A stretch of DNA of 64,000 bases from Christensenellales bacterium (GTDB taxonomy: Bacteria; Bacillota; Clostridia; Christensenellales; UBA3700), in NCBI GenBank assembly GCA_051883395.1, contig JBJETQ010000022.1, positions 2,305 through 66,304 on the forward strand, written 5' to 3'. The notes under the pieces were generated by a model, which worked only from the letters and a program-made list of their open reading frames with translations, did no database searches and was not told where the DNA came from. Each line of letters starts with the position of its first letter. The stretch's first letter is position 1. The translations under genes and the position numbers were made by a program. Below are positions 5,220 through 45,583 of the stretch, piece after piece.

Positions 5220-5301
5220 TAGCAAAAGTTGTGGCGAAAAGGCTTGAAGCCGATTCGCCACGTGGGGAAGGGTAAATATATAGATTTACCCTGATGTAGG
5301 T

Positions 5302-9253: not shown

Positions 9254-9553
9254 TTTTGACGAGCAGCAACTGCCGCCAAGGGTGCAAATATATTTGACAA
9301 GAAAAAGTTACTGCTCTTTGTACCGACTCATACTTCCATCGCCAATATCGGAGAGAGTCGTGCAAGAGCAGAAAAAAATGTCGACGTATACTGTAATATT
9401 GGAAGAATTTGTGCGGTAGAAAGTGTTGTAAACTAAGCAAAATATTTGTACACTATAATAGTTAGGCAATTACGATAGCATAATACGTTTAGAAAAAAAT
9501 CAAATTGCTTTGTTATCAAAAAAATAAAAAATGTTGACACGTATCGACTTTAT

Positions 9554-9896: not shown

Positions 9897-9902
9897 ATAC
9901 AA

Positions 9903-9930
9903 ACAGGACAGGCTTATACCTGTCCTATTT
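9903..9930 (+). terminator. rho-independent terminator of ssrA
   Basis: ACAGGACAGG-CTTATA-CCTGTCCT followed by ATTTG. A near-identical copy lies at 13777-13806. Confidence 0.7.
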
Positions 9931-10337
9931 GTATTATGACAATCAACGCAGATTGAAGAAGCAAGAAACGACGCTGAGATATTTTTTAATAGTTTTTTGA
10001 AATATGATTTAATCAGTTTTACGGCTTATAGATAGTCATTATCAGGCGTCACAAAAATATTACGTATTGACAAAATCGAATGACGGTGGTTTACTAATAT
10101 AGTAAAAGCCAATATGGCAGCTGATGATTGCACATTTGAAATGCAAAACCAGCAAATAACCGATAAGGCTTCTGAAAGGCTTGCAAAATATGCTTGTGGA
10201 GATAAAATATCTGCGAAGTATCGCTTAGATTGCCAAATAAGCTTTTATAAGTTAGTGAAAAGATAATTTACTAAAAATTGATTTTGATTTTTTTAAAAAT
10301 GTGATAAAATAAAAACGAACTTTTATGGAGGTGTATT

Positions 10338-16195: not shown

Positions 16196-18116
16196 GAAAA
16201 AAATATCGGACAAGACGCAGTCCAACGCTATGCCAAAGGCGCAGTTTGACGTAAAGACCCTGACAAGACTGCTCAGTTATATGAAGGACTATAAGGGACA
16301 GCTGGTTTTTGTAGTTATCTGCATTTTGCTCAGCGCAATAGCTTCCGCCGCTTCGTCTTTGTTTTTGCAGTCGCTCATTGACGACTATATCGTACCGCTG
16401 CTTGGAGTGGATAACCCGGTATTCAGCAGTTTGCTCAAAGCTCTTGTGGTGATTGGAGTCATATATCTGGCAGGTGTGCTTTCTACGTTGTTTTACAACC
16501 GCATTATGGTTACCATTGCGCAAGGAACGCTCAAAAAAATAAGAGACGAGATGTTTGAGAAAATGCAAGGTCTGCCTATAAGGGCGTTTGATACCCGCAC
16601 TCACGGCGATATTATGAGCCTTTATACCAACGATACCGATACTCTGCGACAAATGATAGCTCAGTCAATGGCACAACTGATTTCGTCGATATTTACTATT
16701 GTGGCGGTATTCGTCTGCATGTTATATATCAGCGTGTGGCTGACTTTGGTTGCCGTTGCGGTGATGTTTGCAATATTGCAGATAGTAAAAATCATTACAG
16801 GGAAGATAGGCAATTATTTTGTAATGCAACAAAAGACGCTTGCCGACGTCAACGGCTACGTTGAAGAAATGGTAAACGGACAAAAAGTAGTCAAAGTTTT
16901 CTGCCACGAAACGCAGGCAAAAAATCAACTGGGAATAAGAAACACCGAGTGGGCAAAAAGTGCCGCAAGCGCAAACGGGTATGCAAATTCCATGATGCCT
17001 ATGATGAACGCTTTGGGCTACGTCCAGTACGTTATCATTGCGATATTGGGAGCGTATATGGCTATTTCCGGGGCGACAAACTTGTCTCTTACGGGCTGCG
17101 GCACGTTGTCGCTGGGCATGATAGCGTCGTTCCTTACCTTATCACGCAACTTTACCAATCCCGTATCGCAGATATCCAATCAGTTCAATTCGATTGTTAC
17201 CGCTCTTGCAGGTGCATCCCGTATATTTGCCTTTATGGACGAACAGCCTGAGACCGACGAAGGCTACGTTACTCTCGTCAACGCCATTGAACAGGACGGA
17301 ATATTGACGGAAACAAGCGAACGTACAGGAATATGGGCTTGGAAACACCCGCATCACGACGGCACCGTAACTTACACCAAGTTGAAAGGAGAAGTTGTCT
17401 TTGAAAACGTAGATTTTGGATACGTCGCAGACAAACAGGTGTTGTACGACGTTTCGTTGTACGCCAAACCGGGACAAAAAATTGCATTTGTGGGAGCTAC
17501 GGGCGCAGGCAAGACCACTATCACCAATCTTATCAACAGATTTTATGATATCGCCGACGGTAAAATCAGATATGACGGAATCAATATCAACAAAATCAAA
17601 AAGGCCGATTTGCGTCGTTCTTTGGGAGTGGTGCTGCAAGAAGTCAACCTGTTCACAGGGACGGTAATGGATAACTTGCGTTACGGCAATCCCGACGCCA
17701 GCGACGAAGATTGTATTGCCGCAGCTTGTCTTGCCAATGCCGACGGCTTTATAAGAATGTTGCCTGACGGATACAATACCGTTCTCAAAGGCGACGGAAG
17801 CGGCTTGTCGCAAGGACAGCGCCAGTTGCTTTCCATTGCACGTGCGGCAGTATCCAATCCGCCCGTTATGATACTTGACGAAGCTACGTCTTCCATCGAT
17901 ACCCGTACCGAAGCTTTGGTGCAGGACGGTATGGACAAATTGATGAAGGGCAGGACGGTTTTTGTCATAGCGCATCGCCTTTCCACAGTCCGCAATTCCG
18001 ACGTAATTATGGTACTTGACCACGGTAGAATTATAGAACGTGGCAATCACGAAGACCTTATTGCAAAGAAAGGAACGTATTATCAACTCTACACGGGAGC
18101 GTTTGAGTTGGAATAA
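16188..18116 (+). CDS. ABC transporter ATP-binding/permease protein (partner half-transporter)
   Basis: Walker A GATGAGKTT, signature LSQGQRQL, Walker B MILDEATSSID. ATG 16188 overlaps the upstream stop by 8 nt; the longer ORF from 16116 is unsupported. Confidence 0.9.
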   Translation: MSKKKISDKTQSNAMPKAQFDVKTLTRLLSYMKDYKGQLVFVVICILLSAIASAASSLFLQSLIDDYIVPLLGVDNPVFSSLLKALVVIGVIYLAGVLSTLFYNRIMVTIAQGTLKKIRDEMFEKMQGLPIRAFDTRTHGDIMSLYTNDTDTLRQMIAQSMAQLISSIFTIVAVFVCMLYISVWLTLVAVAVMFAILQIVKIITGKIGNYFVMQQKTLADVNGYVEEMVNGQKVVKVFCHETQAKNQLGIRNTEWAKSAASANGYANSMMPMMNALGYVQYVIIAILGAYMAISGATNLSLTGCGTLSLGMIASFLTLSRNFTNPVSQISNQFNSIVTALAGASRIFAFMDEQPETDEGYVTLVNAIEQDGILTETSERTGIWAWKHPHHDGTVTYTKLKGEVVFENVDFGYVADKQVLYDVSLYAKPGQKIAFVGATGAGKTTITNLINRFYDIADGKIRYDGININKIKKADLRRSLGVVLQEVNLFTGTVMDNLRYGNPDASDEDCIAAACLANADGFIRMLPDGYNTVLKGDGSGLSQGQRQLLSIARAAVSNPPVMILDEATSSIDTRTEALVQDGMDKLMKGRTVFVIAHRLSTVRNSDVIMVLDHGRIIERGNHEDLIAKKGTYYQLYTGAFELE

Positions 18117-18495: not shown

Positions 18496-18529
18496 TTGAC
18501 AACAATGGTTGGATATATGATAATATAAT
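18496..18529 (+). promoter_or_regulatory. candidate promoter of the 15-gene operon
   Basis: TTGACA (18496-18501), a 17-nt spacer, then GATAAT (18519-18524), with an overlapping TATAAT at 18524-18529. It sits in a very A+T-rich 450-nt intergenic region. Confidence 0.4.
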
Positions 18530-27947: not shown

Positions 27948-28301
27948 ATGTGTTTTAAAAAATTTACAGAAAAGAGAAAATTGAAAAACTATAACAAGCA
28001 TGATGAAGAAATAAAAGAAAGCAATAGCGTTCTTCGTTCCAATTTTGCCAAGGTAAAAACTTTGTGCGGAATGACTCAATCAGATACAGTAAAGAGCAAA
28101 CTCAATGAAGTTGCCGATTTGTTAGAATATGCATCTCCGTCGACAAAAGGTGAGGTCGTAAAGGAAGATAACAAGATTTCTGACAGGCTTGATGACGTAA
28201 AAATTCTTATTGTTGGAGAGAAGGCAGAAGATAAAATTGTTGAAAAAATCAATGAAATCAGGATTATGGTTATTGAGAGAAATAATTTGACAGGTGTGTA
28301 A
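27948..28301 (+). CDS. operon gene 10: small charged helical protein, unknown family
   Basis: 117 aa with an AAGGAG RBS. Its stop lies 1 nt before the gene 11 start. Confidence 0.5.
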   Translation: MCFKKFTEKRKLKNYNKHDEEIKESNSVLRSNFAKVKTLCGMTQSDTVKSKLNEVADLLEYASPSTKGEVVKEDNKISDRLDDVKILIVGEKAEDKIVEKINEIRIMVIERNNLTGV

Positions 28302-28302
28302 A

Positions 28303-28908
28303 ATGTGGCCTTTTAACAAAAATAAGTTTGAAAAAATCAAGCGTAGCGACGTGGTTGACAGTATCATAAACATAGAGCGCAGGCAACAAGAAGAAATTGA
28401 TAACGTCGGGGAGCGAGAAAAAGAGATAGCGAAACTTTTGCAACAAGGAAAGGCTTGCAAAAGTCGTGATATGCAACTTGCGCTTGCCAAACGCATCAAT
28501 TTGCTTAAAAAAGAAAATAGCAACTCCGCTCAAAGAATTCAGTATCTTAACGCCAATTTGCAGGCGCTAAATCAGCTTAAAACGGCAATTGACGACAAAG
28601 ATTTTATTTCCAACAATTCGGATATACCAATCAACAAACTGTTGACCGATACGGCAGCTTTACAAAAATTTCTTGCCGGTGTAACCAACAAGAAGATGAA
28701 GGGAGAGAGCAAACTTTCTGCGGCGCTTGATACTTTTGATAATGTGGACGACGGCTATGAAGCTAACGAGCGCATTTATGGAGTAAGCGAACAGGACGAA
28801 CAACTTTTAAGTATGTTTGAAATGGAAAATTCTGAAGAAGACGCTTCGGTTTTTGGTGCGCCTGAGTACGAAAAAAATACACAAAGCATAGAAAAGGACA
28901 GCTTATAG
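28303..28908 (+). CDS. operon gene 11: ESCRT-III (Snf7 family)-like protein
   Basis: 201 aa. The N-terminus MWPFNKNKFEK resembles the yeast Snf7 N-terminal MWSSLFGW. It has a basic helical hairpin (IERRQQEEID..EKEIAKLLQQGKACKSRDMQLALAKRINLLKKE..RIQYLNANLQALNQLKTAI) and an acidic C-terminal tail. Confidence 0.7.
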   Translation: MWPFNKNKFEKIKRSDVVDSIINIERRQQEEIDNVGEREKEIAKLLQQGKACKSRDMQLALAKRINLLKKENSNSAQRIQYLNANLQALNQLKTAIDDKDFISNNSDIPINKLLTDTAALQKFLAGVTNKKMKGESKLSAALDTFDNVDDGYEANERIYGVSEQDEQLLSMFEMENSEEDASVFGAPEYEKNTQSIEKDSL

Positions 28909-29525: not shown

Positions 29526-31079
29526 ATGGCTGACGCTGATAAAAATGCTTTTATTTACGATACGTTTTTGATGTATTACGAGCATGCAAAAAAAGCACAA
29601 GAACGTGGCGATATTGCCGGAGCAAAAGAAAACTTGCTCCGTGCTGCGCAAGCATTGGTAAAACTTGCCAAGGAAGATAAGGGAGAACTGAAAAAAGCGA
29701 GATTTGATAGAGCAAATCGCCTTATAGAAATTGCCAACAGTCTGACTCCTAACAGCGTAGTTATCGGAGAAAATTCCAACGTTAAGCGCTCGTCAAATTC
29801 TAACAAATCTGATTCTGCCCGTTCTAACAATGCTTCAAAAAACGAAGATGAAGAAAAAATATGGCAGGCGTCTTCTATACCTGATGTCAAATTTAGCGAC
29901 GTGGCAGGTTTGGAAGACGTAAAAAACACTATAAGAATGAGAATGATAAATCCGGTCAAATATCCGGAAAAATACGCTGTTTACAATAAGAAAAGCGGCG
30001 GTGGAGTTTTGTTATACGGACCACCCGGCACTGGTAAGACAATGATTGCCAAAGCAATTGCCAATGAGGTCGGTGCAACGTTTTATGCAATCAAAGGCTC
30101 GGATATAGTAAGTAAGTGGGTAGGAGAGTCGGAAAAAAACATCAGCAGCCTATTTGAAACGGCTCGTAAGGACAAACTTGCAATAATTTTTGTCGATGAA
30201 ATGGATAGTTTGTTTGGTCAAAGGGGTGTGGACCCGCACAATGACAAACGTGTAAACGAGTTTTTGCAGCAAATTGACGGTTTTGTAGGGCGCAACCCTA
30301 ATCTTTTGTTACTGGGTGCGACAAACCGTCCGTGGGACGTCGATGGTGCGGCTGTGCGTTCCGGACGATTTAGCGAAAAAATTTATGTTCCGTTGCCTGA
30401 TGCACAAGCGAGAATGTACCTGTTGAAAAAACAACTTAAAAACATTCCTTTGGGCAGCGATGTTGATTTTGATAAAGTTGTTCAGATGACCAAAGGATAT
30501 TCGGGAGCGGATATCGATGAAGTATGTGATAGAGCCAAAGAAATACCGCTCAATAATTTTATAAAAAACAATATAGAAGAAAAAGTATGTATGAAACATA
30601 TCATAGGAGCAATAAAAAAGGTGAGACCTATGGTAAGTGCCGAGGAAATTGCTCGTTTTGAGGAATATGCGGGAGTAAGATATAAGGACTCTCCTGATGA
30701 AGAAGACGACATAGAATTCAATGACGAGACACAAAACGACGTCAATACAAATAACTCGTCGGTACAAAACGAAAGCTCGGAAGATGTAACAACTAAAAGG
30801 CAAGAAGCTCCAAAAATCATATTCGAGAAAACTCAAATAGATTTACAGCCAGGAGAAAATCCGACAATCCAATTCTATATTGACGGAGATTATGACAGAG
30901 TATATCTAGAATTGGACGGAGCCAATTACGTGTGTGAAAAATGTATACGCAACTGGAGCTGCGTTGTCAATGTACAGGAAGCAGGAGATTATGTTGCCAG
31001 GATTTTTGCTAAAGAGTTGCTGGGAGAAGAAAAATTGACGTTTTCAAAAGGTTTTGTAGAAAACGATATGGAGATTTGA
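29526..31079 (+). CDS. operon gene 13: Vps4-like AAA+ ATPase (N-terminal MIT domain, single AAA cassette, C-terminal helix, extra beta-rich C-terminal domain)
   Basis: MIT-like three-helix region at aa 1-78 (YYEHAKKAQERGDIAGAKENLLRAAQALVKLAKED ... RANRLIEIANSL). Walker A GPPGTGKT, pore loop SKWVGESEK, Walker B IIFVDEMD, sensor-1 GATNRPW. Arginine-finger region AVRSGRFSEKIYVPLPD resembles Vps4 RRFEKRIYIPLP. Followed by MVSAEEIARFEEYAG and about 125 additional aa. Confidence 0.8.
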   Translation: MADADKNAFIYDTFLMYYEHAKKAQERGDIAGAKENLLRAAQALVKLAKEDKGELKKARFDRANRLIEIANSLTPNSVVIGENSNVKRSSNSNKSDSARSNNASKNEDEEKIWQASSIPDVKFSDVAGLEDVKNTIRMRMINPVKYPEKYAVYNKKSGGGVLLYGPPGTGKTMIAKAIANEVGATFYAIKGSDIVSKWVGESEKNISSLFETARKDKLAIIFVDEMDSLFGQRGVDPHNDKRVNEFLQQIDGFVGRNPNLLLLGATNRPWDVDGAAVRSGRFSEKIYVPLPDAQARMYLLKKQLKNIPLGSDVDFDKVVQMTKGYSGADIDEVCDRAKEIPLNNFIKNNIEEKVCMKHIIGAIKKVRPMVSAEEIARFEEYAGVRYKDSPDEEDDIEFNDETQNDVNTNNSSVQNESSEDVTTKRQEAPKIIFEKTQIDLQPGENPTIQFYIDGDYDRVYLELDGANYVCEKCIRNWSCVVNVQEAGDYVARIFAKELLGEEKLTFSKGFVENDMEI

Positions 31080-31080: not shown

Positions 31081-32583
31081 ATGGAAGAAAAGTTGAAACT
31101 ATACTTTGACGGTATGATTGTCAAAAAATCATCTATTCAGGGAGTTTTTTCTACTTTGAGCTTACCTGCGTTTATTAGAGACTGGTTTATAAAGAGATAT
31201 AGCGATAAAAACGGAGATATTAGCGTTGATTTTGTTACGGAAAAGATAAAGGATATTATTCCAAGAAAAAATGAGTGGAATGCAATTCTTGACAAAATAA
31301 TGACCGGTGAAAAGGCCAAATTTATGGCAAAAATCAACGTTTCATTTGACATAAAAACAGGGCGAGTAAATTTTGCGCTGCCAGACTTTGGTGTAACAAC
31401 CGATCAAACTTATATCAGCGCCACAGTATGGGAGACTTGCAAGAAGAGCCTGTTGCGTACTGATGGCGATATTTGGGGAATAATAGAATTGGGATATGGT
31501 ACGGTCCAAGTCAGCGCAAAAAAAGAGGAAGGAAGGATATTGCTGACTTCATTCAAAGACTTTTTGCCATATAGTATTGATATAAATTATTATAGAAACG
31601 CAAGAAAATATTTTGACTTGGATGAATGGATTGACTTGTTGCTTATGGCGATAGATTACAATCCGTCGGGCTATAACAGTCATGAAGAAAAAATTATGAT
31701 GTTGACCAGGCTTTTGCCGTTTGTAGAAAAGCGTCTTAATCTGATTGAACTTGCGCCAAAAGGTACTGGTAAGAGCTACGTCTTTTCCCAGATCAGTAAG
31801 AGAGGCTGGCTTTCCAGCGGTGGCGTAATGACGAGAGCAAAGTTACTATACGATATGAAAAGCAAACAGGAAGGTTTGGTAGCTAATTATGATTATGTTG
31901 CTCTAGATGAAGTCGGAACAATCAAATTTCCTGATGAGGCAGAAATGCAAGGGGCAATGAAAGGATACCTTGAAAGCGGCTCTTACACGGTTGGTGTAAA
32001 AGCAGGCAATGGTGACGCAGGAATTGTTCTTTTGGGCAATATTAAGTCAGAAATGATGAACGTCAACGTAAATATGTTTGAAAATTTGCCGGCAATATTT
32101 GGTGATTCTGCATTGATAGATCGCTTCCACGGTTTTATTGAAGGCTGGAAAATTCCGAGAATGAACGAGAATATGAAGGCCGACGGTTGGGCACTAAATA
32201 CGGAATATTTTGCAGAAATATTGCATGCATTCAGAGATGACGTTGTATCAAAAACATTGGTTGAAAATGTGCTAATCGTTCCAAAAGATGCAGACACCAG
32301 AGATACTACTGCCGTCAAGAAGATTATGACTGCCTTTACTAAGTTATTGTTCCCGCATTGGCAAAAGCCTCAGGACGTAGATTTTGAAAAGATGCAAAAA
32401 TATTGTCTTGACCCTGCAATGAAGATGAGAAATATTATCAAAAAGCAGTTGGCAATTATTGATGTTGAATATAGAAACAAACCAATGGCAGATTATAGAT
32501 TGATCGGGTATAATCAAACTCCGCCTGATGATCCAAGCGACAAAGATAGTTTAAGCATCGAACAAGCATGTATAAATGAGTGA
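31081..32583 (+). CDS. operon gene 14: BrxL-like AAA+ ATPase (TIGR02688 / Lon-related ATPase family) lacking the Lon protease domain
   Basis: The N-terminus YFDGMIVKK ... SLPAFIRDWFIKRY, Walker A ELAPKGTGKSY and Walker B YVALDEVG followed by MQGAMKGYLESGSYTVG match my recollection of the BrxL N-terminal and ATPase regions. At 500 aa it is too short to include the C-terminal protease domain. Confidence 0.55.
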   Translation: MEEKLKLYFDGMIVKKSSIQGVFSTLSLPAFIRDWFIKRYSDKNGDISVDFVTEKIKDIIPRKNEWNAILDKIMTGEKAKFMAKINVSFDIKTGRVNFALPDFGVTTDQTYISATVWETCKKSLLRTDGDIWGIIELGYGTVQVSAKKEEGRILLTSFKDFLPYSIDINYYRNARKYFDLDEWIDLLLMAIDYNPSGYNSHEEKIMMLTRLLPFVEKRLNLIELAPKGTGKSYVFSQISKRGWLSSGGVMTRAKLLYDMKSKQEGLVANYDYVALDEVGTIKFPDEAEMQGAMKGYLESGSYTVGVKAGNGDAGIVLLGNIKSEMMNVNVNMFENLPAIFGDSALIDRFHGFIEGWKIPRMNENMKADGWALNTEYFAEILHAFRDDVVSKTLVENVLIVPKDADTRDTTAVKKIMTAFTKLLFPHWQKPQDVDFEKMQKYCLDPAMKMRNIIKKQLAIIDVEYRNKPMADYRLIGYNQTPPDDPSDKDSLSIEQACINE

Positions 32584-32600: not shown

Positions 32601-34820
32601 ATGAGTATAAAAATAAAAAGAAGAGTGGCAATATTTGGCATAATCGCATTACTGTTGGCAGTATTATGCGTAGGCGTTGCTTGCGATTCAAACGAATTCG
32701 AAAGAGATATTTTGCCTGAAAATAATAGCACTGGTGTTGAGGAAGAAAATAAAGTGCTAGAAGATGAATTGGAAAATTTGGCAATGCATCTTGATATGTC
32801 TTTAGGACTATTCAGAGTTCTTAAAGAGAACAATAGTATCCAATATTATACAGCAGTATTTATAGACAATCAAGGCGGTTTTGTTGTGCCAAAAGAAGCA
32901 ATAGAAAATTCTATTAGCGCTGAATTAAAAACTCAAAACAGAATTTATGAAAATAATAAAATTCATGTAATCAAAAACAATGAACAAAGTAATTTTGCCG
33001 TACTCAGTGTTGACGACATTGTTACCGAGGGATTACTTACGACAAAAGAAATAAGCAATAAGGTTTATGCTGTAGGATATAACAAAACTAGCAATAACTT
33101 TGAAAAAAAGGTAATAGAAGTTTATAATTTTGACAAGGTGATAATATCGGCTGAATCAAGCGATTTTCTTTATGGATGTGCATTAATAGATTCGTCAAGT
33201 AAAAAATTATATGGCGTATATTCTCCTGTTGAAGGAGTAGCAGCAAGTGCTGAAATTTTGATGGCTGAGCCAATTGAGGATCAGTTGAGCGGGACTAACA
33301 TATATTGGAGTTTGGCAGAGTATAATCGTTCCAAATATCCATGCAATGTGTCAATATATGACGGTGAGTCGTTAGTATATTCTTTCAGTAGCGGCGTGGT
33401 TTTTGGCACGGCTGTGGGAGATATCTTGGCACAAACACGACATGTACTTAATAATCCGGGTCATGCGCTTGTAGGTTTTTATGACGACGATAACAATCAT
33501 TACACTGACGTCTCCGACGATATAAGAGACGACGTGAATTTGCATACTATGTGGGTAGAGATTGACGTGCTAGAAGAGAACGTAAGGGGAACGGTGAATT
33601 TTGACGAAAGTAAAACCCATTATTTTGATACAGGTATCAGTGTCGTTGCAACAAACGCCCCAGGTTACGTTTTTGCAGGCTGGTATAACGGAATCTACTT
33701 GCTAGATTCGGCATTGAGTGCAAAGTTACCTGTACCACAATATAACGCCACCTTTAATGCTAAATGGGTGCAATTTAGCTATGAAACCAATAATGATGCA
33801 GCAGGAAACGTTGAGGCTACAAGTTCTTATAACAGTATAGGTGATAGCGTTGTGCTGAGAGCCATAGAAACTGATGAGACATATACTTGGTTGGGCTGGT
33901 ATAAGGGCGGCGAAAAGGTTTCTGATTCGTATATATATACTATGACGATCGGAGAAGAAGATGCTCTTTACACGGCAACTTGGGAGAGCTATACGTTGAA
34001 TTTGTCGGCGGATGTGATTGGCAATAGCATTACGGTTAATTTTGACATCAACGATGAACAGGTCAGTGCAACGATGCCTTCTTCGCAGACGATATATACA
34101 GGTGAAAGTATATATTACGTCAAACCTACCGATATAGTTGGCAGATACCTGTTTGCAGGATGGTATAGTACGGCAGATTGCACAGGAGAACCGTTTGATT
34201 TTACCGCCGAGTTGAATAGCGACGTTACGCTCTATGCAAAATGGTGTGCATATAATGTCGATACTAGCAGCAATACATATTATTCAAGGCAAGTGGGCGA
34301 AACGGGAAACATATATGGTTATAGTAAAAATAGCAGTAGCGGAAACTACATAGCATTTGTTCCGTTGGTGAGTCAAAGCATAACTATTTATTCTTCGGGC
34401 AGTTGGGATACGTACGGCTATCTGTATAGCAGTAATATGAGCTTGCTCAGTTATAACGATGACGGTGGCATAAATAATAATTTTAGTATTACATATAGCG
34501 TGAAAGCAGGACAATTATATTATATCAAAGCGTGCGGGTATTCGTCATCAGGTACTATGGGCTTAACGATAACGGGTACTGCAACTCCTGCTGACGGAGG
34601 TAATGTAGTCGGTTTCAGCGGACCTTATTCCGGAAGAATTAAGGCAGGAACTGTATTCAATTTTAGAACCCATGCAACTAGCGGCGCCGGCGCTTATGTT
34701 TTCAATGGCTGGTATGTCAACGGAATCTTGCAAGATGCAGACTACGATGAATTTGAATTTGTAATGCCTTATCAAGATGCAAATATAGAAGTAAAATATA
34801 GAACCATGTCGATTTACTGA
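32601..34820 (+). CDS. operon gene 15: anchored surface protein with a degenerate trypsin-like domain, Listeria-Bacteroides (InlB B-type) repeats and a PPC-like domain
   Basis: N-terminal anchor or possible lipobox IFGIIALLLAVLCVGVAC. Repeats GYVFAGWY, YTWLGWY, GRYLFAGWY..DVTLYAKW and AYVFNGWY. SWDTYGYLYSSNMSLLSYNDDGG ... GQLYYIKACGYSSSGTMGLTITG is typical of pre-peptidase C-terminal domains. AGGAG RBS precedes ATG 32601. Confidence 0.65.
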   Translation: MSIKIKRRVAIFGIIALLLAVLCVGVACDSNEFERDILPENNSTGVEEENKVLEDELENLAMHLDMSLGLFRVLKENNSIQYYTAVFIDNQGGFVVPKEAIENSISAELKTQNRIYENNKIHVIKNNEQSNFAVLSVDDIVTEGLLTTKEISNKVYAVGYNKTSNNFEKKVIEVYNFDKVIISAESSDFLYGCALIDSSSKKLYGVYSPVEGVAASAEILMAEPIEDQLSGTNIYWSLAEYNRSKYPCNVSIYDGESLVYSFSSGVVFGTAVGDILAQTRHVLNNPGHALVGFYDDDNNHYTDVSDDIRDDVNLHTMWVEIDVLEENVRGTVNFDESKTHYFDTGISVVATNAPGYVFAGWYNGIYLLDSALSAKLPVPQYNATFNAKWVQFSYETNNDAAGNVEATSSYNSIGDSVVLRAIETDETYTWLGWYKGGEKVSDSYIYTMTIGEEDALYTATWESYTLNLSADVIGNSITVNFDINDEQVSATMPSSQTIYTGESIYYVKPTDIVGRYLFAGWYSTADCTGEPFDFTAELNSDVTLYAKWCAYNVDTSSNTYYSRQVGETGNIYGYSKNSSSGNYIAFVPLVSQSITIYSSGSWDTYGYLYSSNMSLLSYNDDGGINNNFSITYSVKAGQLYYIKACGYSSSGTMGLTITGTATPADGGNVVGFSGPYSGRIKAGTVFNFRTHATSGAGAYVFNGWYVNGILQDADYDEFEFVMPYQDANIEVKYRTMSIY

Positions 34821-36883: not shown

Positions 36884-38257
36884 TTATTCTACCTGATCGC
36901 AACAGTCAAAGTCGTTGTCGATATAGTGTGCGATAAATCTTGCTCTGAAACGGCGTGTATTGCATATTCCGTCAGGAGTACCGCTAACGTCAAGTTCTTC
37001 GGGTAGAACGAACTTGATACAACGCACTTTGATATCGGTACAGCTTTCTTTGGTGTGTGCAGGCACGACAAAAGTTTTGAGTCCACGCTTGTACTCTAAG
37101 TCGTTTTCGTCGAGTTCCGTTACTATTGCGGCGAGAGCAACACGTTTGTTTGGACATACCTTACGCAAAGTTACGTCGAGCTGCAAGACTCTGCCCATAG
37201 ATTCCATCATAAGGTCGCCTGCGTCTATCTCCACGCTGTCGTTGCAACCGCCGATAGATACTTCTACCGGCAAAGGGCAATCTTCGGGAGTTACTACGAC
37301 GTCGCAGTCAACGACGATGGATGGCGACGGAAATACAACTACGTTGCCTTCGTCGTCGGTATATTCTATCGAAGCGTCAACTTCTGTTTCGCCTTCACAT
37401 TCTCCAAGATGTTGTAGAGTAAAGGTAAAACTTGCGCCTTCGCTTTCGGTTTTTCCGAGCTCGTCAATCTTCCATTGTACCGTCGTGTCGTTGAGCATAA
37501 GTGCGCTGCCCTTGGTAGGAGAAGACACGCCTACCACTTTGAAACAGTCTGAGACAATGTCTTTGACAACGATGTCGGTTGCGCCGGGCTTAGAGATATT
37601 TTTTGCCAAATCTTCAAAGATGTCTTCGAGCTGACTGTCGTCGGGTGCTATTGCCACGTAGGCGGAGCTTGGCTGCGACGCCCACATTTTGAGAGCAGCT
37701 TCGTCTATGCCGCCGTCGCCTTCAAGACCTATGGCGTATATGATAACGCCTTGCGCTTTTGCCTGAGCGGCAACTACTGCCGGCATGCTGCCTACCGTCG
37801 TTACGCCGTCGGTAAACATGACCATAACTTTGGCATTGGTTGACGACATGTCAAACAGGTCGAGAGCTTTGGTAAAGGCGTCGGCATGATTGGTACTGCC
37901 GCCTGACGTCAGGGCGTCCACCGCCGCATTGAGAGTGGCTACCGAAGTAATCAGCCCCGTATCCTGTGTGGCTGTGGTGGCAAAACTTACTATGCCTATA
38001 TGACTGCCACCGCCGATATTGCCGTCCTGGCTACTGTCGGTGGACTGGTCAATGATTTCGATAAATTTTTTTGCTCCGAGTTTGAGATTGGCAAGCGGAC
38101 TGCCTTCCATACTGCCGGAGCGGTCTAATATAAGCACGATGTCGGTCGGATTGGATACGATATCGGGCTGAGCGGACAACGAAAGAGTTACGTCAAACGT
38201 GTCCTTGCAATTGATTTGTTTCTTAGAAATGGTTTTATTTGATGACGTTATTCCCAT
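36884..38257 (-). CDS. cytoplasmic vWA-domain protein with a Cys-rich C-terminal region
   Basis: MIDAS motif DIVLILDRSGSMEG, then GGSTN and MFTDG. No signal peptide. GGAAGGAGGA RBS precedes ATG 38257; the longer ORF to 38338 is unsupported. Confidence 0.75.
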   Translation of the reverse strand: MGITSSNKTISKKQINCKDTFDVTLSLSAQPDIVSNPTDIVLILDRSGSMEGSPLANLKLGAKKFIEIIDQSTDSSQDGNIGGGSHIGIVSFATTATQDTGLITSVATLNAAVDALTSGGSTNHADAFTKALDLFDMSSTNAKVMVMFTDGVTTVGSMPAVVAAQAKAQGVIIYAIGLEGDGGIDEAALKMWASQPSSAYVAIAPDDSQLEDIFEDLAKNISKPGATDIVVKDIVSDCFKVVGVSSPTKGSALMLNDTTVQWKIDELGKTESEGASFTFTLQHLGECEGETEVDASIEYTDDEGNVVVFPSPSIVVDCDVVVTPEDCPLPVEVSIGGCNDSVEIDAGDLMMESMGRVLQLDVTLRKVCPNKRVALAAIVTELDENDLEYKRGLKTFVVPAHTKESCTDIKVRCIKFVLPEELDVSGTPDGICNTRRFRARFIAHYIDNDFDCCDQVE

Positions 38258-38479
38258 ATATTTTCCTCCTTCCCCACGACATAATATGATACATTTTGTC
38301 GTCGGGTGAAAGGCGTGTTTCGGACAAGTTTGTTTCAAACAAAGCCTGTCCGTTTGCCGTTTTGGTTGCGACGCTTACAAAATACTTACAAAACTTTATC
38401 GATACGTTTACCAAACGGCGGCGATTTGATAACAAACGCCACGTATAATATAATCACAAAGGTCAAAAGGAGAAATAAA

Positions 38480-39067: not shown

Positions 39068-39610
39068 ATGAAACTTAGCAAAACAATATACAAAGAAACG
39101 GCTTATATCGCTATCTGGACAATTATTTTCAGCGTGTTGATGAATGCGGTTTTTTTGATTGTAAGAAAGTGGAATTTGACGGTATTGTGGGGCAATCTTC
39201 TCAGTTTTGCGGGCGGCGTGCTCAACTTTTTTTTGTTGGGAGTAACGGTGCAAAAGGCATTGGATTATGACGAAAAAAAAGCAAAAACAGCCATGAAACT
39301 GTCGCAAAGTCTGCGACTTTTGATGTTGTTTGTGTTCGCTGTTGTGGGAGTGATTTTCGACTGTTTCAATATCATTGCGGTATTACTGCCGCTGCTTTTC
39401 CCAAGAATCGCCATAGCTATAAGACCGCTTTTTGATAAAAAAATGAACAAAGGAGGGGAGATAAGTGGAAACACTAGTGCAGACGACGGAAACGACGGAT
39501 TTGCAGAATGCGCAGGCACAGACGACGGAAACGACGGACTTGCAGAAAGCGCAGATGCAGACGGCGCAAACGCAATCTCAGTCGAAGAAGACGTCGAAGA
39601 AAACCAATGA
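39068..39610 (+). CDS. atpI: ATP synthase subunit I (AtpI-like) with an acidic C-terminal extension overlapping atpB
   Basis: Four hydrophobic segments, located at the head of the atp operon. The frame stays open 146 nt into atpB. Confidence 0.6.
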   Translation: MKLSKTIYKETAYIAIWTIIFSVLMNAVFLIVRKWNLTVLWGNLLSFAGGVLNFFLLGVTVQKALDYDEKKAKTAMKLSQSLRLLMLFVFAVVGVIFDCFNIIAVLLPLLFPRIAIAIRPLFDKKMNKGGEISGNTSADDGNDGFAECAGTDDGNDGLAESADADGANAISVEEDVEENQ

Positions 39611-40511
39611 TATCCTCTTCAAAGTAGTTGACGTTTTGTTGATAATCATGATGCTGTTGCCGATAGTAGCGGCAATGGTACTCAAAGTTTTGTTTACTCC
39701 TGCGTCGCAAGGCGTGGAGATTACGGGTGCGCTCATATATTTTACTATCCCTATGCCGTTCCAGGATTTGCCGATAGGCGAATCGCAGGTCAACAGCTGG
39801 CTGTTGATAATTTCGATAATCTTTTTGTGTCTGTTTATGACTCACGGCATCAAAGAAAGACCAAATCTCAAAAGACAGTACGTTATCGAATGGGCTGTGG
39901 ATAAGGTCAAGGCAATGGTGGGTGAGAGCATGGGAGACTACTTTGCAGGTTTTGCCGCTTTTATTGCAGGTATAATGGTTTTGTCTGCATTGTCCAGTCT
40001 TTTGTCGCTGGTAGGACTCTTTCCTCCGACTTCTGACATCAACGTTGTAGCAGGTTGGGCGATACTGGTATTCTTTATCATCACGTATTACAAGATGAAA
40101 TGCGGACCTGTCAACTATCTCAAAGGTTTTACCAAGCCTGTGGCGCTGTTGTTGCCTATCAACATAATCAGCGAGTTCGCAACACCCGTATCAATGGCTT
40201 TCCGTCATTACGGCAATATACTTTCCGGTACGGTAATATCGGTGCTGTTGGGAGCGGCGTTGAGAACGTTGTCTGCAAAGTTGTTGGGCTGGCTGCCGGG
40301 AGTGCTGGGAGACATACCGTATTTGCAGGTCGGCATTCCTGCAATATTGTCGCTGTATTTCGACGTATTCAGTTCGCTGTTGCAGGCATATATCTTTGCG
40401 ATGCTGACGATGATGTACGTGTCGAGTGCTTTCGAATACGACCTGTATCAGCAGCGACAGTATAACAAACAACAAAAAAAGCAACAAAAAAGGGCTAGGG
40501 CAAACGCTTAG
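39465..40511 (+). CDS. atpB: F0F1 ATP synthase subunit a
   Basis: GTG start 6 nt after a GGAGGGG RBS. Conserved FRHYGNILSG (the essential Arg region) and LQAYIFAMLT. The N-terminal extension carries a 13-aa tandem repeat. Confidence 0.85.
   Translation: METLVQTTETTDLQNAQAQTTETTDLQKAQMQTAQTQSQSKKTSKKTNDILFKVVDVLLIIMMLLPIVAAMVLKVLFTPASQGVEITGALIYFTIPMPFQDLPIGESQVNSWLLIISIIFLCLFMTHGIKERPNLKRQYVIEWAVDKVKAMVGESMGDYFAGFAAFIAGIMVLSALSSLLSLVGLFPPTSDINVVAGWAILVFFIITYYKMKCGPVNYLKGFTKPVALLLPINIISEFATPVSMAFRHYGNILSGTVISVLLGAALRTLSAKLLGWLPGVLGDIPYLQVGIPAILSLYFDVFSSLLQAYIFAMLTMMYVSSAFEYDLYQQRQYNKQQKKQQKRARANA
39480..39575 (+). repeat. 39-nt tandem repeat (about 2.4 copies) inside the atpI/atpB overlap
   Basis: CAGACGACGGAAACGACGGATTTGCAGAATGCGCAGGCA is followed by CAGACGACGGAAACGACGGACTTGCAGAAAGCGCAGATG and then a partial third unit. 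Confidence 0.85.
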
Positions 40512-40523
40512 TCTTAGAAATAA

Positions 40524-40835
<312 letters not shown>

Positions 40836-40847
40836 TCGGAGGAAACA

Positions 40848-41360
40848 ATGCAAACATCAGAGATTATATCTGTCAACGTCTGGCAAATAATCATCTCGCT
40901 GTGCAATCTAGTGATTATCTTCGTCATTCTCAAAAAGTTGCTGTTCAAGCCTATACAGAAGATGCTGGACAAGCGCAAAAACATGATTGACGAACAGTAT
41001 GACAAGGCTCAGAAGGCTCAGGATGAAGCCGAACAAGCCAAAGCCGAGTGGGACGAAAAGATGAGCGTTGCCGACGCCCGTGCAGACGGAATAATCGACA
41101 GCGCCAACAAACGTGCCGAAAAAATCACCGAAAAGGCGACGCTGGAAGCGAGAGAAAAAGCCGACGCAATCGTCAGACAAGCCCAAGTTGACGCAGACCT
41201 TGAAAGAAAGAAGGCTGAGGACGACATAAAAAAGGAAATTGTCGACGTTTCGTCTTGCCTTGCCGAAAAGATTATCGAGAGAGAAATCGACGTGGACGAC
41301 CACCGCAAGTTGATAGACTCTTTTATTGACAAGATAGGAGAGAGCGATGATAATCAATAA
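40848..41360 (+). CDS. atpF: F0F1 ATP synthase subunit b
   Basis: A single N-terminal TM helix followed by a long charged helix; operon position fits. Confidence 0.85.
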   Translation: MQTSEIISVNVWQIIISLCNLVIIFVILKKLLFKPIQKMLDKRKNMIDEQYDKAQKAQDEAEQAKAEWDEKMSVADARADGIIDSANKRAEKITEKATLEAREKADAIVRQAQVDADLERKKAEDDIKKEIVDVSSCLAEKIIEREIDVDDHRKLIDSFIDKIGESDDNQ

Positions 41361-41880
41361 GGTAAGTGCAGAATATGCCGGAGCGTTGTTTGAGCTTTCC
41401 GTTGAAAAGGGCGTGCAGAAGCAGTATTACGACGACGTAGTCAGGATTTATCAGGCTCTAAAAGAAAACCCTGCTTTTGGAGAGCTGTTGACTTCTGCAA
41501 ACGTAACGATAGCGGAAAAAATCGACATAGTCGACAAGGCTTTTGGCAGTCTCAATGAAGACGTGGTTTCCTGGGTAAAGATTCTTTGCGAAAAAAAGCG
41601 TTTCGATTTGTTTGACTTTTGCTATCGTGATTACGTGGGAATGTACAACGATGCCAACAAGATTCTGACGGCAAAGGTCAGGACGGCTTTGCCTTTGAGC
41701 AAAGAAGAAAAACAAAGGCTCACCAAAGAATTGGAAAAAAAGAGCGGGCATAAAGTCGTGCTGGAATGTGTGGTCGATGCCAACGTGCTTGGCGGTATGA
41801 TTATCGAACATGAAGGCAAAATTATCGACGGCAGTCTCAAAACCCGTCTTAACAGAATAAAGGAAGTGATAAATAAATGA
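41347..41880 (+). CDS. atpH: F0F1 ATP synthase subunit delta
   Basis: YAGALFELS ... and the C-terminal [13 protein letters not shown] are typical of the OSCP/delta family. Confidence 0.85.
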
Positions 41881-43370
41881 ATGGTAAACCCGAAGAAATA
41901 AGCAGTATTATCAAGGACCAAATCAAAAATTACAATTCCCGTATCGAAATGCGAGAGACGGGAAAGGTTATTCTTGTGGGCGACTCTATTGCCAAGGTTT
42001 ACGGACTCAAAGACTGTATGTCCAGCGAGCTGTTGGAGTTTGACGACGGCAGTTTCGGTATTGCCCAAAACCTGGAAGCAGAAACGGTGTCGGTGGCTAT
42101 TCTTTCCGATACCAATCAGATTCATGAAGGCAGTATAGTCAAAAGAACCGGCAGAGTCGTTTCGGTGCCTGTCGGTGAAGCTTTGCTGGGCAGAATCGTA
42201 GACGCTTTGGGCAATCCAATCGACGGCAAGGGACCTGTGGCTTATACTACTACCAAACCGGTAGAAGCCGAAGCTCCTGGAATCATAGAGAGACAGAGCG
42301 TATCGGTGCCTTTGCAGACGGGTATCAAGGCTATTGACAGTATGATACCGATAGGCAGGGGACAAAGAGAACTGATTATCGGCGATAGACAGACGGGTAA
42401 GACGGCTATCGTTACCGATACCATAATCAATCAGAAGAACACGGGAGTGCTGTGTATTTACGTGGCGATAGGTCAAAAGAGTACGTCTGTGGTGCAACTT
42501 GCCCAGGAATTGAGCAAAGCGGGAGCGATGGAATATACCATTATCGTGTCGGCTTCGGCTGCGGAGAGTGCTCCTTTGCAATACATTGCTCCTTATGCAG
42601 GTTGCGCAATGGCGGAATATTTCAGAGAACAGGGCAAAGACGTGTTGATTATATACGACGACTTGTCCAAGCACGCCGTGGCATATCGTGCGCTGTCGTT
42701 GCTCATACGCAGGCCGCCGGGACGTGAAGCATACCCTGGCGACGTATTCTACCTGCACTCTCGTCTTTTGGAGAGAGCGGCATGTGTTGCTCCTGAATTT
42801 GGTGGCGGTTCCATAACCGCTCTGCCCATTATCGAAACTCAGGCAGGAGACGTGTCGGCATATATCCCTACCAACGTAATATCCATTACCGACGGACAGA
42901 TATTTTTGGAAACAGAACTCTTTAACGCAGGAGTTATGCCTGCTATCAACCCGGGAATTTCCGTCAGCCGTGTAGGCGGTTCGGCGCAGATAAAGGGTAT
43001 GAAAAAGGTAGCCGGAGAACTCAAACTTCTGTATTCGCAATACAGGGAATTGCAGGCTTTTGCACAATTTGGCAGCGACCTTGACCAAGACACCAAAAAA
43101 CGTCTTGCTCTTGGCGAGAGAATTGCCGAAGTTCTGAAACAAAAGCGCAACGCACCTGTTAGAGTAGGCTGTCAGGTGGCTATCGTTTATGCCGTAGTCA
43201 ACGGTTATCTCGACGAAGTGCCTGTGGAAAAAGTCAAGAAGTACGAAAAAGCACTGTACGAGACTTTGGAGAACGATTACGTCGATTTGCTTGTAAGAAT
43301 AGAGAGCGGCGAGTACGGCGAGCGTGAAATAGAAGATTTGAAACAAGCATTGAGCGGTCTGAGGTGGTAA
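41877..43370 (+). CDS. atpA: F0F1 ATP synthase subunit alpha
   Basis: GDRQTGKT Walker [11 protein letters not shown], and [21 protein letters not shown]. Confidence 0.95.
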
Positions 43371-43371
43371 A

Positions 43372-45583
<2,212 letters not shown>

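Follow-up and report, generated by a model that had tools for sequence, protein, structure and literature searches.

The locus analyzed here raises the question of why an ATPase of the BrxL family should be encoded directly behind a Vps4-like ATPase gene in an ESCRT-like operon, and on what substrate it may act there. The gene lies within a 64-kb stretch of DNA (referred to as the window), the features of which are collected in Table 1.

Judged by its sequence, the encoded protein is a genuine member of the BrxL family of AAA+ ATPases. It matches the Pfam models BrxL_N (E = 4e-27; 95.2 bits, cut-off 28.2) and BrxL_ATPase (E = 1.7e-113), the NCBIfam model TIGR02688 (424.1 bits against a curated equivalog cut-off of 329.3, over profile positions 3-448 of 449), and the PADLOC BrxL model (E = 6.8e-194), and all three motifs quoted in the original prediction were found in it: LIELAPKGTGKSY (Walker A), YVALDEVG (Walker B), and MKGYLESGSYTVG. 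A glutamate corresponding to E280 of Acinetobacter BrxL is likewise found in Walker B. Among PDB sequences, nothing but BrxL is matched at E ≤ 0.001. These matches refute the alternative of a mislabelled AAA+ protein of another kind, such as a generic Lon or MoxR, for which we found no support: the sole non-BrxL matches in Pfam and NCBIfam, both far under threshold, were to DUF5766 (E = 0.054) and IstB (E = 0.11), and the clades named beforehand as possible other homes of the protein, Lon (AAA/Lon_C) and MoxR (AAA_3), had no match listed at E ≤ 1 in either database.

As predicted, the protein has no C-terminal Lon-like domain. TIGR02653, the NCBIfam model of the long, Lon-bearing form, is covered only over positions 5-454 of 675 (236 bits, cut-off 628). 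The alignment to Acinetobacter BrxL (8EMC/8EMH; E = 1e-48) covers only residues 11-458 of 679 and, since it ends at residue 458, the Lon-like domain is absent from the window protein. The accompanying idea that this domain was lost by truncation, however, does not hold, since a length of ~480 amino acids without a Lon domain is usual for the BrxL of type 4 BREX, where it is explicitly stated to be standard (PMC12839542). In keeping with this, TIGR02688 itself has 449 positions, 67 of the 80 sampled GTDB loci show a BrxP-BrxC-PglZ-BrxL arrangement, and RefSeq annotates a "BREX-4 PglZ" beside a short BrxL. What is new is the genomic context of the short BrxL, a form already known from type 4 BREX.

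The window protein and the BrxL of type 4 (phosphorothioate-based) BREX (TIGR02688; PADLOC PDLC02505) share this ~480 amino acid length class and the combination of BrxL_N with an MCM-like BrxL_ATPase and no C-terminal domain. The sequences are 49-55% identical in the sampled bacterial loci (44.5% for an archaeal plasmid copy), with identical Walker A, Walker B, and other conserved motifs, and the residues that set cassette BrxL apart are F36, Y40, S236, T251, and K/R at 282. Both brxL genes directly follow a gene ending in a DUF7862 domain, but this partner is an ATPase with MIT-like and AAA domains (MIT-AAA) in the window and PglZ in type 4 BREX, and no BrxP, BrxC/PglY, PglZ, or cysteine desulfurase lies near the window gene. 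The BrxL of type 1 BREX (TIGR02653; 8EMC/8EMH) is homologous in its N-terminal region and AAA+ domain (~30% identity), but extends at its C-terminus by a Lon-like (or HKD nuclease) domain of ~200 amino acids, through which two hexamers dimerise in the solved structure and which is absent from the window protein; its gene adjoins PglX/PglZ type A, whereas the window gene does not.

A search of all stop-to-stop ORFs of the 64-kb window with custom HMMs detected no PglZ, BrxC, BrxP, PglX, BrxA, or BrxB, and PADLOC run on 49 window ORFs likewise detected no BREX partner genes, which agrees with the prediction that this brxL lies outside of a BREX locus. No BREX genes were found around BrxL in the related cassette loci either. 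The tight packing of brxL behind the Vps4-like gene was also borne out: a single base separates the TGA of the upstream gene (31077-31079) from the ATG of brxL (31081), and a Shine-Dalgarno sequence, GGAG (31071-31074), lies inside the upstream gene.

Table 1. Features of the window, in order of position; numbers are nucleotides of the window unless stated otherwise.
Feature	Position	Strand	Evidence or remark
Promoter-like site TTGACA-17-GATAAT	18496-18524		
Lineage-specific upstream operon extension	18573..25564	+	Closest relatives only
FtsK/SpoIIIE-family ATPase	18573-22100	+	Pfam FtsK_SpoIIIE, E = 3.5e-28
Five small helical proteins	22091-23684	+	One WXG100 match, E = 2.9e-4, below cut-off
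Membrane LRR_5 protein	23720-25564	+	
Zinc ribbon, TPR, TIR-like protein (TPR-TIR), 448 aa	25616..26962	+	Custom cluster C10 HMM, E = 6e-50
SPFH/Band_7_1 protein with C-terminal zinc ribbon	26985..27917	+	Pfam; first gene of the conserved core
Small conserved cassette protein, 117 aa (cluster C12)	27948..28301	+	In most cassettes
SnfA, ~200-aa helical protein	28294..28908	+	Conserved in cassette
SnfB, Snf7-family (ESCRT-III) protein, 197 aa	28923..29516	+	Pfam Snf7, E = 2.2e-4
MIT-AAA ATPase ("Vps4-like"), 517 aa	29526..31079	+	Pfam AAA, AAA_lid_3, Vps4_C
DUF7862-like β-domain, C-terminus of MIT-AAA	30813..31076	+	hhalign, Pfam DUF7862, custom HMM
brxL, short (type-4 BREX-type) form, 500 aa	31081..32583	+	ORF with ATG start
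BrxL_N domain	31102-31497 (residues 8-139)	+	Pfam PF20442
BrxL_ATPase domain	31540-32481 (residues 154-467)	+	Pfam PF13337
Walker A of BrxL, APKGTGKS	31753-31776	+	
Walker B of BrxL, ALDE	31900-31911	+	
Surface protein with Flg_new (Listeria-Bacteroides) repeats	32602..34820	+	Last gene of the low-GC island

The genes preceding brxL form a conserved cassette that encodes an SPFH/zinc ribbon protein, a small protein, two Snf7-like proteins, the MIT-AAA ATPase, and a TPR-TIR protein. Both domains of the SPFH protein are recognised by Pfam (Band_7_1, E = 2.2e-25; Zn_Ribbon_1, E = 1.7e-8), and the small protein has no Pfam match. The SnfB of the window scores 21.4 bits, under the Pfam Snf7 cut-off of 27.3; within its family, Snf7 is matched by 13 of 30 members (best E = 2.8e-8) and PspA by none of the 30. 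The AF2 model of SnfB consists of four long helices, for which the top Foldseek matches in the PDB are CdvB, CHMP2A-CHMP3, and CdvB2, at E-values that are not significant, and its C-terminal tail carries a motif (ID.ELE.L.KK) that is conserved in the alignment and looks MIM1-like by eye. SnfA, which has no Pfam or PDB sequence match, is probably a distant paralogue of SnfB, although the comparison of their profiles reaches only 43% probability (hhalign, E = 2.5e-4); the profiles of the two families gave chance-level matches only against PDB sequences. The relatives of SnfA begin with MW.PF, so that its translation may actually start at the ATG at 28303.

The TPR-TIR family is variable and is present in nearly all cassettes. 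The window member aligns over residues 4-268 to its relative in locus L005 (the sampled loci are numbered with L), which has a Pfam-recognised TIR_2 domain, as do those of L143 and L146. The TIR-like domain of the window protein is not itself recognised by Pfam, and in the alignment it appears to lack the glutamate of this relative's NEW motif. Some cassette loci also encode a trypsin-like protease, with PADLOC protease-domain matches.

The ATPase upstream of brxL is composed of an MIT-like three-helix bundle (residues 3-72, confident in the AF2 model), a disordered linker, a classical AAA domain plus lid (residues 120-382), an acidic linker, and a C-terminal DUF7862-like β-domain. Its N-terminal profile matches the MIT domains of VPS4A/B, SKD1, and Sulfolobus in the PDB (best E = 1.3e-3), and matches to Pfam MIT (PF04212) and Vps4_C are precomputed for several of its relatives; Vps4_C itself is marginal, at 21.7 bits in the window protein (cut-off 21.3) and 24.2 bits in L094. 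The earlier "Vps4-like" label fits the architecture (MIT, AAA, and marginal Vps4_C). Among solved structures, the AAA core comes closest, by sequence search and by Foldseek, to the D2 domain of p97/Cdc48 (38-39% identity). As p97 D2 ranks above Vps4 in both searches, we avoid the label of Vps4 orthologue and name the protein MIT-AAA, with a Vps4-like architecture.

The β-domain at the end of this ATPase connects the cassette with type 4 BREX. It aligns with the C-terminal domain of type-4 PglZ over 93 columns that extend to both C-termini (hhalign, 98.4%, E = 6.9e-15), Pfam DUF7862 is matched by 7 of 15 MIT-AAA β-domains (best E = 7.7e-6), and a custom HMM matches the last ~90 amino acids of 24 of 54 PglZ proteins. 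The C-terminal tail of the domain carries a conserved KG..E.D.. pattern. The domain is present in all BrxL-bearing loci with a readable ATPase (~20, or 18 after merging near-identical ones) and absent from all BrxL-less cassettes examined, a joint absence that is weaker than the counts imply, since the DUF7862 segment and brxL are usually contiguous and one deletion could take both. The length of MIT-AAA differs accordingly, with 477-535 amino acids in the presence of BrxL and either 368-382 amino acids or a ~700 amino acid double AAA form in its absence. From these data, we infer that DUF7862 and brxL were captured as one block from type 4 BREX, and gene order and co-occurrence point to the DUF7862 of MIT-AAA as a putative BrxL-docking adaptor.

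The recurrence of Snf7/Vps4 neighbours, which the original prediction proposed as a check, extends to a whole clade of BrxL proteins. BrxL is found in the SPFH-Snf7-Snf7-MIT-AAA cassette in ~20 loci, with BrxL identities of 51-100% and differing flanks, and all sampled BrxL relatives with at least ~56% identity, plus those of L015 and L026 (54%), lie in this cassette; the hosts are Christensenellales and other Bacillota from gut and rumen. At least 14 loci have the cassette without BrxL, and most cassettes are without both BrxL and the FtsK-like gene. The cassette-linked proteins form one clade that never occurs in BREX (neighbour-joining bootstrap 76/100), a support that is not decisive in trees built by neighbour-joining on simple distances. 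The Walker A, Walker B, LGNI, DRFHGF, and ADTRD motifs are invariant in the ESCRT-linked and BREX-4 clades, which are discriminated by four positions alone. Viral contigs contain only BREX-4-linked relatives (≤ 53% identity), and plasmids only BREX-linked or more distant BrxL (≤ 44.5% identity). As no viral contig carries the ESCRT-linked form, a phage origin of the cassette is not supported.

Alternatively, brxL might be a remnant of a decayed BREX-4 locus, or an independent defence gene that merely lies beside an ESCRT-like operon. Clustering and decay are common for defence genes and BrxL is dispensable in some BREX systems according to the literature, but we regard this explanation as very improbable and strongly disfavour it. 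It does not fit the repetition of the same arrangement across divergent loci with different flanks, the monophyly of the cassette clade, the fully intact catalytic motifs, the 1-nt intergenic gap with a Shine-Dalgarno sequence inside the upstream gene, or the occurrence of a PglZ-derived DUF7862 on the neighbouring ATPase exactly where BrxL occurs; moreover, the window holds no other BREX-4 gene fragment.

The cassette shares features with known membrane-remodelling systems and departs from each of them. As in the archaeal and eukaryotic ESCRT-III/Vps4 (Cdv) systems, a Snf7-like protein has a tail that, by eye, resembles a MIM, but CdvA and ESCRT-I/II genes are absent, p97/Cdc48 D2 is the closest match of the AAA core, TIR, trypsin-like, and BrxL components are added, and the hosts are bacteria instead of archaea and eukaryotes. 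The archaeal "Meth_adaptin" loci (PMC10936438) have in common with the window operon an SPFH protein with a zinc ribbon. The envelope-stress operons of the PspA-YdjGHI type in Bacillus subtilis (PMC11237479) are similar in that, also in Firmicutes, a protein of the ESCRT-III superfamily is encoded with a protein that combines Band_7_1 and a zinc ribbon. Unlike these operons, the cassette has polymer-forming proteins that match Snf7 and not PspA, it encodes a dedicated MIT-AAA, a TIR protein, and BrxL, and no equivalents of YdjG or YdjH were identified in it. According to recent reviews, Vps4-like ATPases appear to be absent from bacteria (PMC7619361) or were transferred to them without snf7 (PMC11237479), and ESCRT components other than PspA-type proteins have not been found in bacteria (PMC7619361, PMC10936438).

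The cassette of the window lies in an island with a GC content of 0.33-0.39 (18.5-34.8 kb), compared with 0.44-0.47 in the flanks, which consist of housekeeping genes and not of a defence island. No tRNA gene was found in the window, so that no tRNA marks the island boundary; a tmRNA gene is located 9 kb upstream. The original prediction described the operon as ESCRT/T7SS-like. The T7SS-like part is not core: beyond the window, the FtsK-like and weakly WXG100-like genes are seen only in L001-L003 (L004 is cut upstream), outside of the conserved genes, and no EssA/EssB/EsaA-type proteins were identified with them. For the Flg_new surface protein that closes the island, also found in L001-L004, the ATG at 32602, which follows CAGGAG, is a more probable start than the GTG at 32580. 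An ABC exporter pair lies beside the island, but conserved synteny is not supported for it: it shares ~36% identity with the pair that neighbours cassettes lacking BrxL.

With regard to its substrate, the type 1 BrxL of Acinetobacter assembles into rings on dsDNA in an ATP-dependent manner, holds dsDNA in its pore, has a dsDNA-stimulated ATPase activity, and resembles MCM (PMC10164562); ring assembly and DNA stimulation are known for this BrxL only. By homology to the solved protein, the window BrxL is predicted to form an MCM-like AAA+ ring that encircles dsDNA and has an N-terminal nucleic-acid-binding region. The pore-aligned basic residues are kept or gained in the ESCRT-linked sequences, 13 of 14 of which have K/R at position 92 (R104 of Acinetobacter), 13 of 14 K/R/H at position 262, and 13 of 14 K/R at position 282. 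DNA is the putative substrate of BrxL in the cassette as well. The original prediction offered as an alternative a ring of broader substrate-handling function, which the conservation of BrxL_N and of these basic residues does not favour. In a more specific form, the ring would handle protein: like a Lon devoid of its protease, it would be a second motor that unfolds or disassembles Snf7-like filaments or WXG100-like proteins. Such a role could be suggested by the pairing of BrxL with a protein-remodelling AAA ATPase and polymer-forming proteins, by the first annotation of the family as Lon-like, and by the inactivity of the Lon-like domain in the solved long BrxL (PMC12839542). We nevertheless hold it to be quite improbable, given that the solved MCM-like BrxL holds and is stimulated by dsDNA, that the N-terminal region, which comprises an HTH plus an OB fold according to the literature, matches BrxL_N in the window protein, that the cassette clade departs from BREX-4 BrxL at so few positions while its basic pore residues are conserved or increased, and that the window protein has no protease domain.

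The explanation that we propose, which we rate as about evenly balanced between right and wrong, is that a short BREX-4-type BrxL was captured together with the 3′ end of pglZ (DUF7862), fused behind MIT-AAA in an ESCRT-III-like cassette, and works there as follows. The SPFH and Snf7-like proteins would assemble on the cytoplasmic membrane, and MIT-AAA would bind their C-terminal tails and remodel the polymer. DUF7862, at the C-terminus of MIT-AAA, would dock the BrxL ring, as we propose also for the same domain of PglZ in BREX-4, and an ATP-driven binding or translocation of DNA would in this way be positioned at the membrane, with invading DNA as the most plausible target. The TIR protein, plus the trypsin-like protease in some loci, may serve as effectors or signalling components of a conflict system. 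In BREX-4, DNA modification does not require brxZ or brxL (PMC12914056), which places both in the system's other arm. A defence role of the cassette is plausible on the basis of the TIR domains, the protease, and the patchy low-GC island.

BrxL could instead be a DNA motor in a cell-biological membrane process, clearing or pumping DNA at a neck that is cut by the Snf7-like polymer, as FtsK/SpoIIIE do at septa, in settings such as division, sporulation-type engulfment, or the release of DNA vesicles. The MCM-like dsDNA ring of the family would suit this role, as would the FtsK/SpoIIIE-family ATPase in the same operon of the window and its closest relatives and the housekeeping genes in the flanks of the window. 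In addition, the cassette directly follows ftsQ/ftsA/ftsZ in L005, L007, L008, and L009, with spoIIGA-sigE-sigG preceding in L005 and L008. This ftsZ neighbourhood is, however, limited to one group of four related genomes, and BrxL and the FtsK-like gene are both missing from most cassettes. The patchy distribution, the low GC, and the flanks that vary among loci also argue against such a role, as do the TIR proteins and trypsin-like protease typical of conflict systems and the derivation of BrxL and DUF7862 from a defence system, and we consider this alternative unlikely.

Returning to the capture of BrxL by an ESCRT-III-like cassette, no model in PADLOC covers the cassette, the searchable literature yielded nothing relevant on BrxL with Vps4/Snf7 or on bacterial ESCRT with defence, and neither source yielded a defence system that combines BrxL with membrane-remodelling and TIR proteins. 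It is possible, though we advance this only tentatively, that the cassette represents an undescribed membrane-associated immune or DNA-handling machine of Bacillota, built of Snf7 polymers, an SPFH scaffold, and MIT-AAA, to which one lineage has added DUF7862 and BrxL, the effector arm of BREX-4. The recurrence of Snf7-family proteins with an MIT-AAA partner in gut and rumen Bacillota contrasts with the statements of recent reviews, and the locus links a DNA-ring ATPase of restriction-type defence to membrane-remodelling proteins and TIR domains. An apparent natural domain swap, in which brxL moved along with no more of PglZ than its last ~90 residues, singles out DUF7862 as a candidate docking domain for both BREX-4 and the cassette. 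If the explanation is true, DUF7862 would be the physical connection, long sought, by which BrxL is recruited in BREX, and a bacterial ESCRT-like system would act on DNA crossing or located at the membrane, such as incoming phage genomes.

Our analysis assigns the window protein (gene 14, brxL) to the short BrxL family, since all sequence criteria agree on this placement. Its ORF contains the motifs that the original prediction had quoted for BrxL, and Pfam detected BrxL_N at residues 8-139 (E = 4e-27) and BrxL_ATPase at residues 154-467 (E = 1.7e-113). The protein scored 424 bits against the NCBIfam model TIGR02688 (curated cut-off 329) and matched the 482-position PADLOC BrxL model with an E-value of 6.8e-194; the match to the long, Lon-bearing NCBIfam model TIGR02653 was confined to positions 5-454 of 675 and stayed far under its cut-off. 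The sole solved structures with a sequence match were those of Acinetobacter BrxL (8EMC/8EMH, E = 1e-48), where the alignment spans residues 11-458 of 679 and the Lon-like C-terminal domain lies outside. No Lon or MoxR family was found among the Pfam and NCBIfam matches of the protein, so the placement in such an AAA+ clade that the original prediction had weighed against itself does not apply. As predicted, brxL starts 1 nt after the stop of the Vps4-like gene (TGA at 31077-31079, one base, ATG), and a GGAG lies 7 nt 5' of this ATG. An identical protein is already recorded from a Christensenellales MAG. The Flg_new surface-protein gene has a mechanically called GTG start at 32580 that overlaps the brxL stop; translation more probably begins at the ATG at 32602, which follows a CAGGAG.

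Lack of the Lon domain is characteristic of the family and not a truncation, because a BrxL of ~480 amino acids is the normal form in type 4 BREX (BREX-4), as PMC12839542 also states. A scan for relatives, with one genome per GTDB species, gave 597 matches; the best 80 loci were fetched, their neighbors clustered, and cluster representatives annotated. ORF calling in the fetched loci was crude, with a few genes taken instead from the database's own gene calls, and all counts refer to loci, not to independent evolutionary events. In 67 of these best 80 loci the order was BrxP (PAPS reductase; PADLOC E = 6e-232), BrxC/PglY (1e-238), PglZ (9e-106), and BrxL, often followed by a DndA/IscS-like desulfurase. 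The same arrangement on a Methanosphaera plasmid is labeled BREX-4 in RefSeq, and on a Klebsiella plasmid the long BrxL form comes after PglX and a PglZ of type A. The absence of the domain was thus correctly predicted, but the protein is not a shortened one. Full BrxP-BrxC-PglZ-BrxL sets were also present on 20 of 23 viral-collection contigs with short BrxL (IMG/VR, fetched loci L120-L141); contigs classified as viral, possibly prophage-adjacent regions, thus often carry type 4 BREX.

The window BrxL is not part of a BREX system, since the locus-level test found no BREX partner genes around it. HMMs for BrxP, BrxC, PglZ, and the cysteine desulfurase, built on their genes in related loci, had no meaningful match among all stop-to-stop ORFs of the window, and when 49 window ORFs were compared with the PADLOC models, no BREX family besides BrxL was detected, which confirms for the whole 64 kb that the gene lies outside a BREX locus. 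It is contained in a low-GC island (18.5-34.8 kb; GC 0.33-0.39 vs 0.44-0.47 in the flanks) whose genes are all on the + strand and whose best promoter-like site is at 18496-18524. The flanks are housekeeping in nature, including ABC exporters, rubrerythrin, and the tmRNA and F-ATPase loci listed in the table, and no tRNA gene was found anywhere within the window. The ABC exporter pair (ABC_membrane and ABC_tran, 14444-18116) lies just upstream of the island, and a similar pair with ~36% identity (16157-19700 in L094, 16122-17876 in L143) is located directly downstream of several cassettes lacking BrxL, after a MarR gene; this is either coincidence or a loose association.

Table. Coordinates and strand of selected window features.
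Feature	Position	Strand	Remarks
tmRNA gene	9554-9896		Tag peptide ANNNKQIAVAA; ~9 kb upstream of the island
DUF7862-like β-domain of the MIT-AAA ATPase	30813-31076	+	Homologous to BREX-4 PglZ C-terminus (by sequence)
brxL ORF	31081-32583	+	500 aa; motifs LIELAPKGTGKSY, YVALDEVG, MKGYLESGSYTVG
VWA-domain protein	36884-38338	-	Ordinary chromosomal context
F-type ATP synthase operon	39068-45583	+	Downstream of the island; ordinary chromosomal context

Among the sampled relatives, none with at least ~56% identity, nor L015 and L026 at 54%, belonged to a BREX locus, and at ~53-55% identity both contexts were found (L016 and L144 are BREX-4). The recurrence of BrxL next to Snf7 and Vps4 genes, which the original prediction had proposed to check, was borne out: all the closest sampled relatives lie in a Snf7/MIT-AAA cassette. 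From gene calls with precomputed Pfam hits and our own neighbor clustering, its order is an SPFH/Band_7_1 protein with a zinc ribbon, a ~115 amino acid protein, SnfA (~200), SnfB (~195), the AAA ATPase (~480-535), and BrxL, with a TPR-TIR protein before or after the set and flanks that vary from locus to locus. In a neighbor-joining tree of 88 short BrxL proteins rooted on long BrxL, the 17 cassette-linked sequences formed one clade (bootstrap 76/100), which stands beside bacterial BREX-4 BrxL in this simple tree. Both clades keep Walker A, Walker B, LGNI, DRFHGF, and ADTRD without variation, and only four positions tell the clades apart. At positions aligned with the pore-proximal residues mutated in solved BrxL (R104, S264, and K287), 13 of 14 cassette-linked proteins carry K/R at 92, K/R/H at 262, and K/R at 282, the last being mostly S in BREX-4. 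Since the motifs are invariant, the discriminating positions few, and the pore-aligned basic residues kept or gained, the cassette protein looks like a working BrxL with unchanged biochemistry.

The SnfB family is small, with 117 clusters among 5.8 billion collected proteins; of 30 members scanned, 13 match Snf7 in Pfam (best E = 2.8e-8), whereas PspA is matched by none. Its AF2 model has four long helices (pLDDT 75), and the top PDB folds were S. islandicus CdvB (probability 0.99), CHMP2A-CHMP3, and CdvB2, with E-values that are not significant. The conserved tail ID.ELE.L.KK looks like a MIM1-like motif, and SnfA is at best a distant paralogue (hhalign probability 43%). The listed SnfA start is GTG 28294; relatives begin with MW.PF, which suggests ATG 28303 as the true start. 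The upstream ATPase has a confident N-terminal three-helix bundle (AF2) whose profile matches VPS4A/B and Sulfolobus MIT domains, and Pfam MIT and Vps4_C are precomputed hits in family members, but its AAA core is nearest to p97/Cdc48 D2 by both sequence and fold. We therefore keep "Vps4-like" for its predicted architecture only, and call it a MIT-AAA protein. Double-AAA forms of ~680-713 amino acids occur in the BrxL-less loci L107 (10564-12603), L108 (10569-12668), and L146 (10001-12142).

A trypsin-like protease (Pfam Trypsin_2, E = 6e-29), resembling the protease domains of PADLOC RT-Protease_XI and LmuA, follows MIT-AAA in cassettes with and without BrxL (L012 at 9201-9989, L013, L014, L015, L026, L145 at 11603-12538, L105, and L114), and in six loci (L012-L015, L026, and L145) it separates the ATPase from BrxL. 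The window TPR-TIR-family protein (25616-26962) has 448 amino acids, much shorter than its relatives (~700-1600); it aligns through the TIR_2 region of a relative and received no Pfam TIR call. An isoleucine stands in place of the glutamate of the relative's NEW motif, so catalytic activity may be absent from the TIR-like domain of the window protein. A 1175 amino acid FtsK/SpoIIIE-family ATPase, with no hydrophobic segment by eye, and five small helical proteins occupy 18573-23684; one of the latter (22372-22638) has a weak WXG100 match (E = 2.9e-4), and the first shares, by eye, an SWDDS motif with the C-terminus of the TPR-TIR-like protein. These ATPase and helical genes, like an LRR protein, are confined to the window and L001-L003, its closest relatives, so the predicted T7SS-like character is local to this group; the Flg_new protein extends also to L004.

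A metagenome scan anchored on SnfB, together with further look-ups, found the cassette without BrxL in at least 14 loci. There the MIT-AAA protein has 368-382 amino acids or is a ~700 amino acid double AAA; with BrxL it has 477-535 in every locus with a readable ATPase (~20, or 18 with near-identical loci counted once). In a simple neighbor-joining tree of AAA cores, the BrxL-less forms are spread over at least three different positions, and one of them, the L147 ATPase, 64% identical to that of the window, lacks both extension and BrxL. The extension comprises an acidic linker, a confident all-β domain (residues 430-508, AF2), and a conserved tail F.KG..END.., and its domain (L001-L015, L026, L112, L113, L116, L143, and L145) tracks brxL where the ATPase is readable. 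Profile comparisons identify this domain as a homologue of DUF7862, the C-terminal domain of BREX-4 PglZ: in 24 of 54 PglZ proteins our extension HMM matched the C-terminal ~90 residues (best E = 1.6e-15), hhalign of 15 ATPase against 12 PglZ C-termini gave 98.4% probability (E = 6.9e-15, 93 columns to both ends), and Pfam DUF7862 directly matched 7 of the 15 ATPase C-termini (best E = 7.7e-6). Taking into account that in BREX-4 the DUF7862-coding segment lies immediately upstream of brxL, the simplest history would be capture of a contiguous block, the 3' end of pglZ plus brxL, with in-frame fusion to the MIT-AAA gene. As the two are usually contiguous, one deletion can remove both.

Solved BrxL encircles dsDNA as an ATP-dependent ring; its ATPase activity is stimulated by dsDNA and its structure is MCM-like (PMC10164562). 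In a Bacteroides BREX-4 system, brxZ (pglZ) and brxL are dispensable for phosphorothioate synthesis and therefore belong to the non-modification arm (PMC12914056). We infer that DUF7862 could be an adaptor docking BrxL to its partner, with MIT-AAA replacing PglZ in the cassette, so that a ring binding or translocating DNA would be anchored to a membrane-bound assembly of SPFH and Snf7 proteins. The TIR proteins, trypsin-like protease, patchy distribution, and low-GC island make a conflict system the most plausible setting for this assembly; a closed ring needing a free DNA end would, speculatively, be well placed at the site of phage DNA entry. A cell-biological role is also conceivable, with BrxL clearing or pumping DNA at a membrane neck, because in one group of related Christensenella-type genomes (L005, L007, L008, and L009, upstream 1-6000) the cassette follows ftsQ/ftsA/ftsZ directly and precedes nrdR, with spoIIGA-sigE-sigG also preceding it in L005 and L008. 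This neighborhood may be one inherited insertion or a hint of a link to division or sporulation.

The most recent BREX census describes type-4 BrxL and does not mention Vps4, Snf7, ESCRT, SPFH, or DUF7862. ESCRT surveys either recognize no such components in bacteria or describe Vps4-like ATPases as apparently absent from them (PMC7619361, PMC10936438), and one study describes transfers of Vps4-like ATPases to bacteria with displaced snf7, and some bacterial Snf7/PspA-AAA operons, without mentioning BrxL (PMC11237479). No description of the association between BrxL and the ESCRT-like cassette was found in the open-access papers and preprints searched. We rate the window gene as a member of a BrxL clade that was exapted into an ESCRT-like system outside BREX, and the complete cassette may itself represent a new system.
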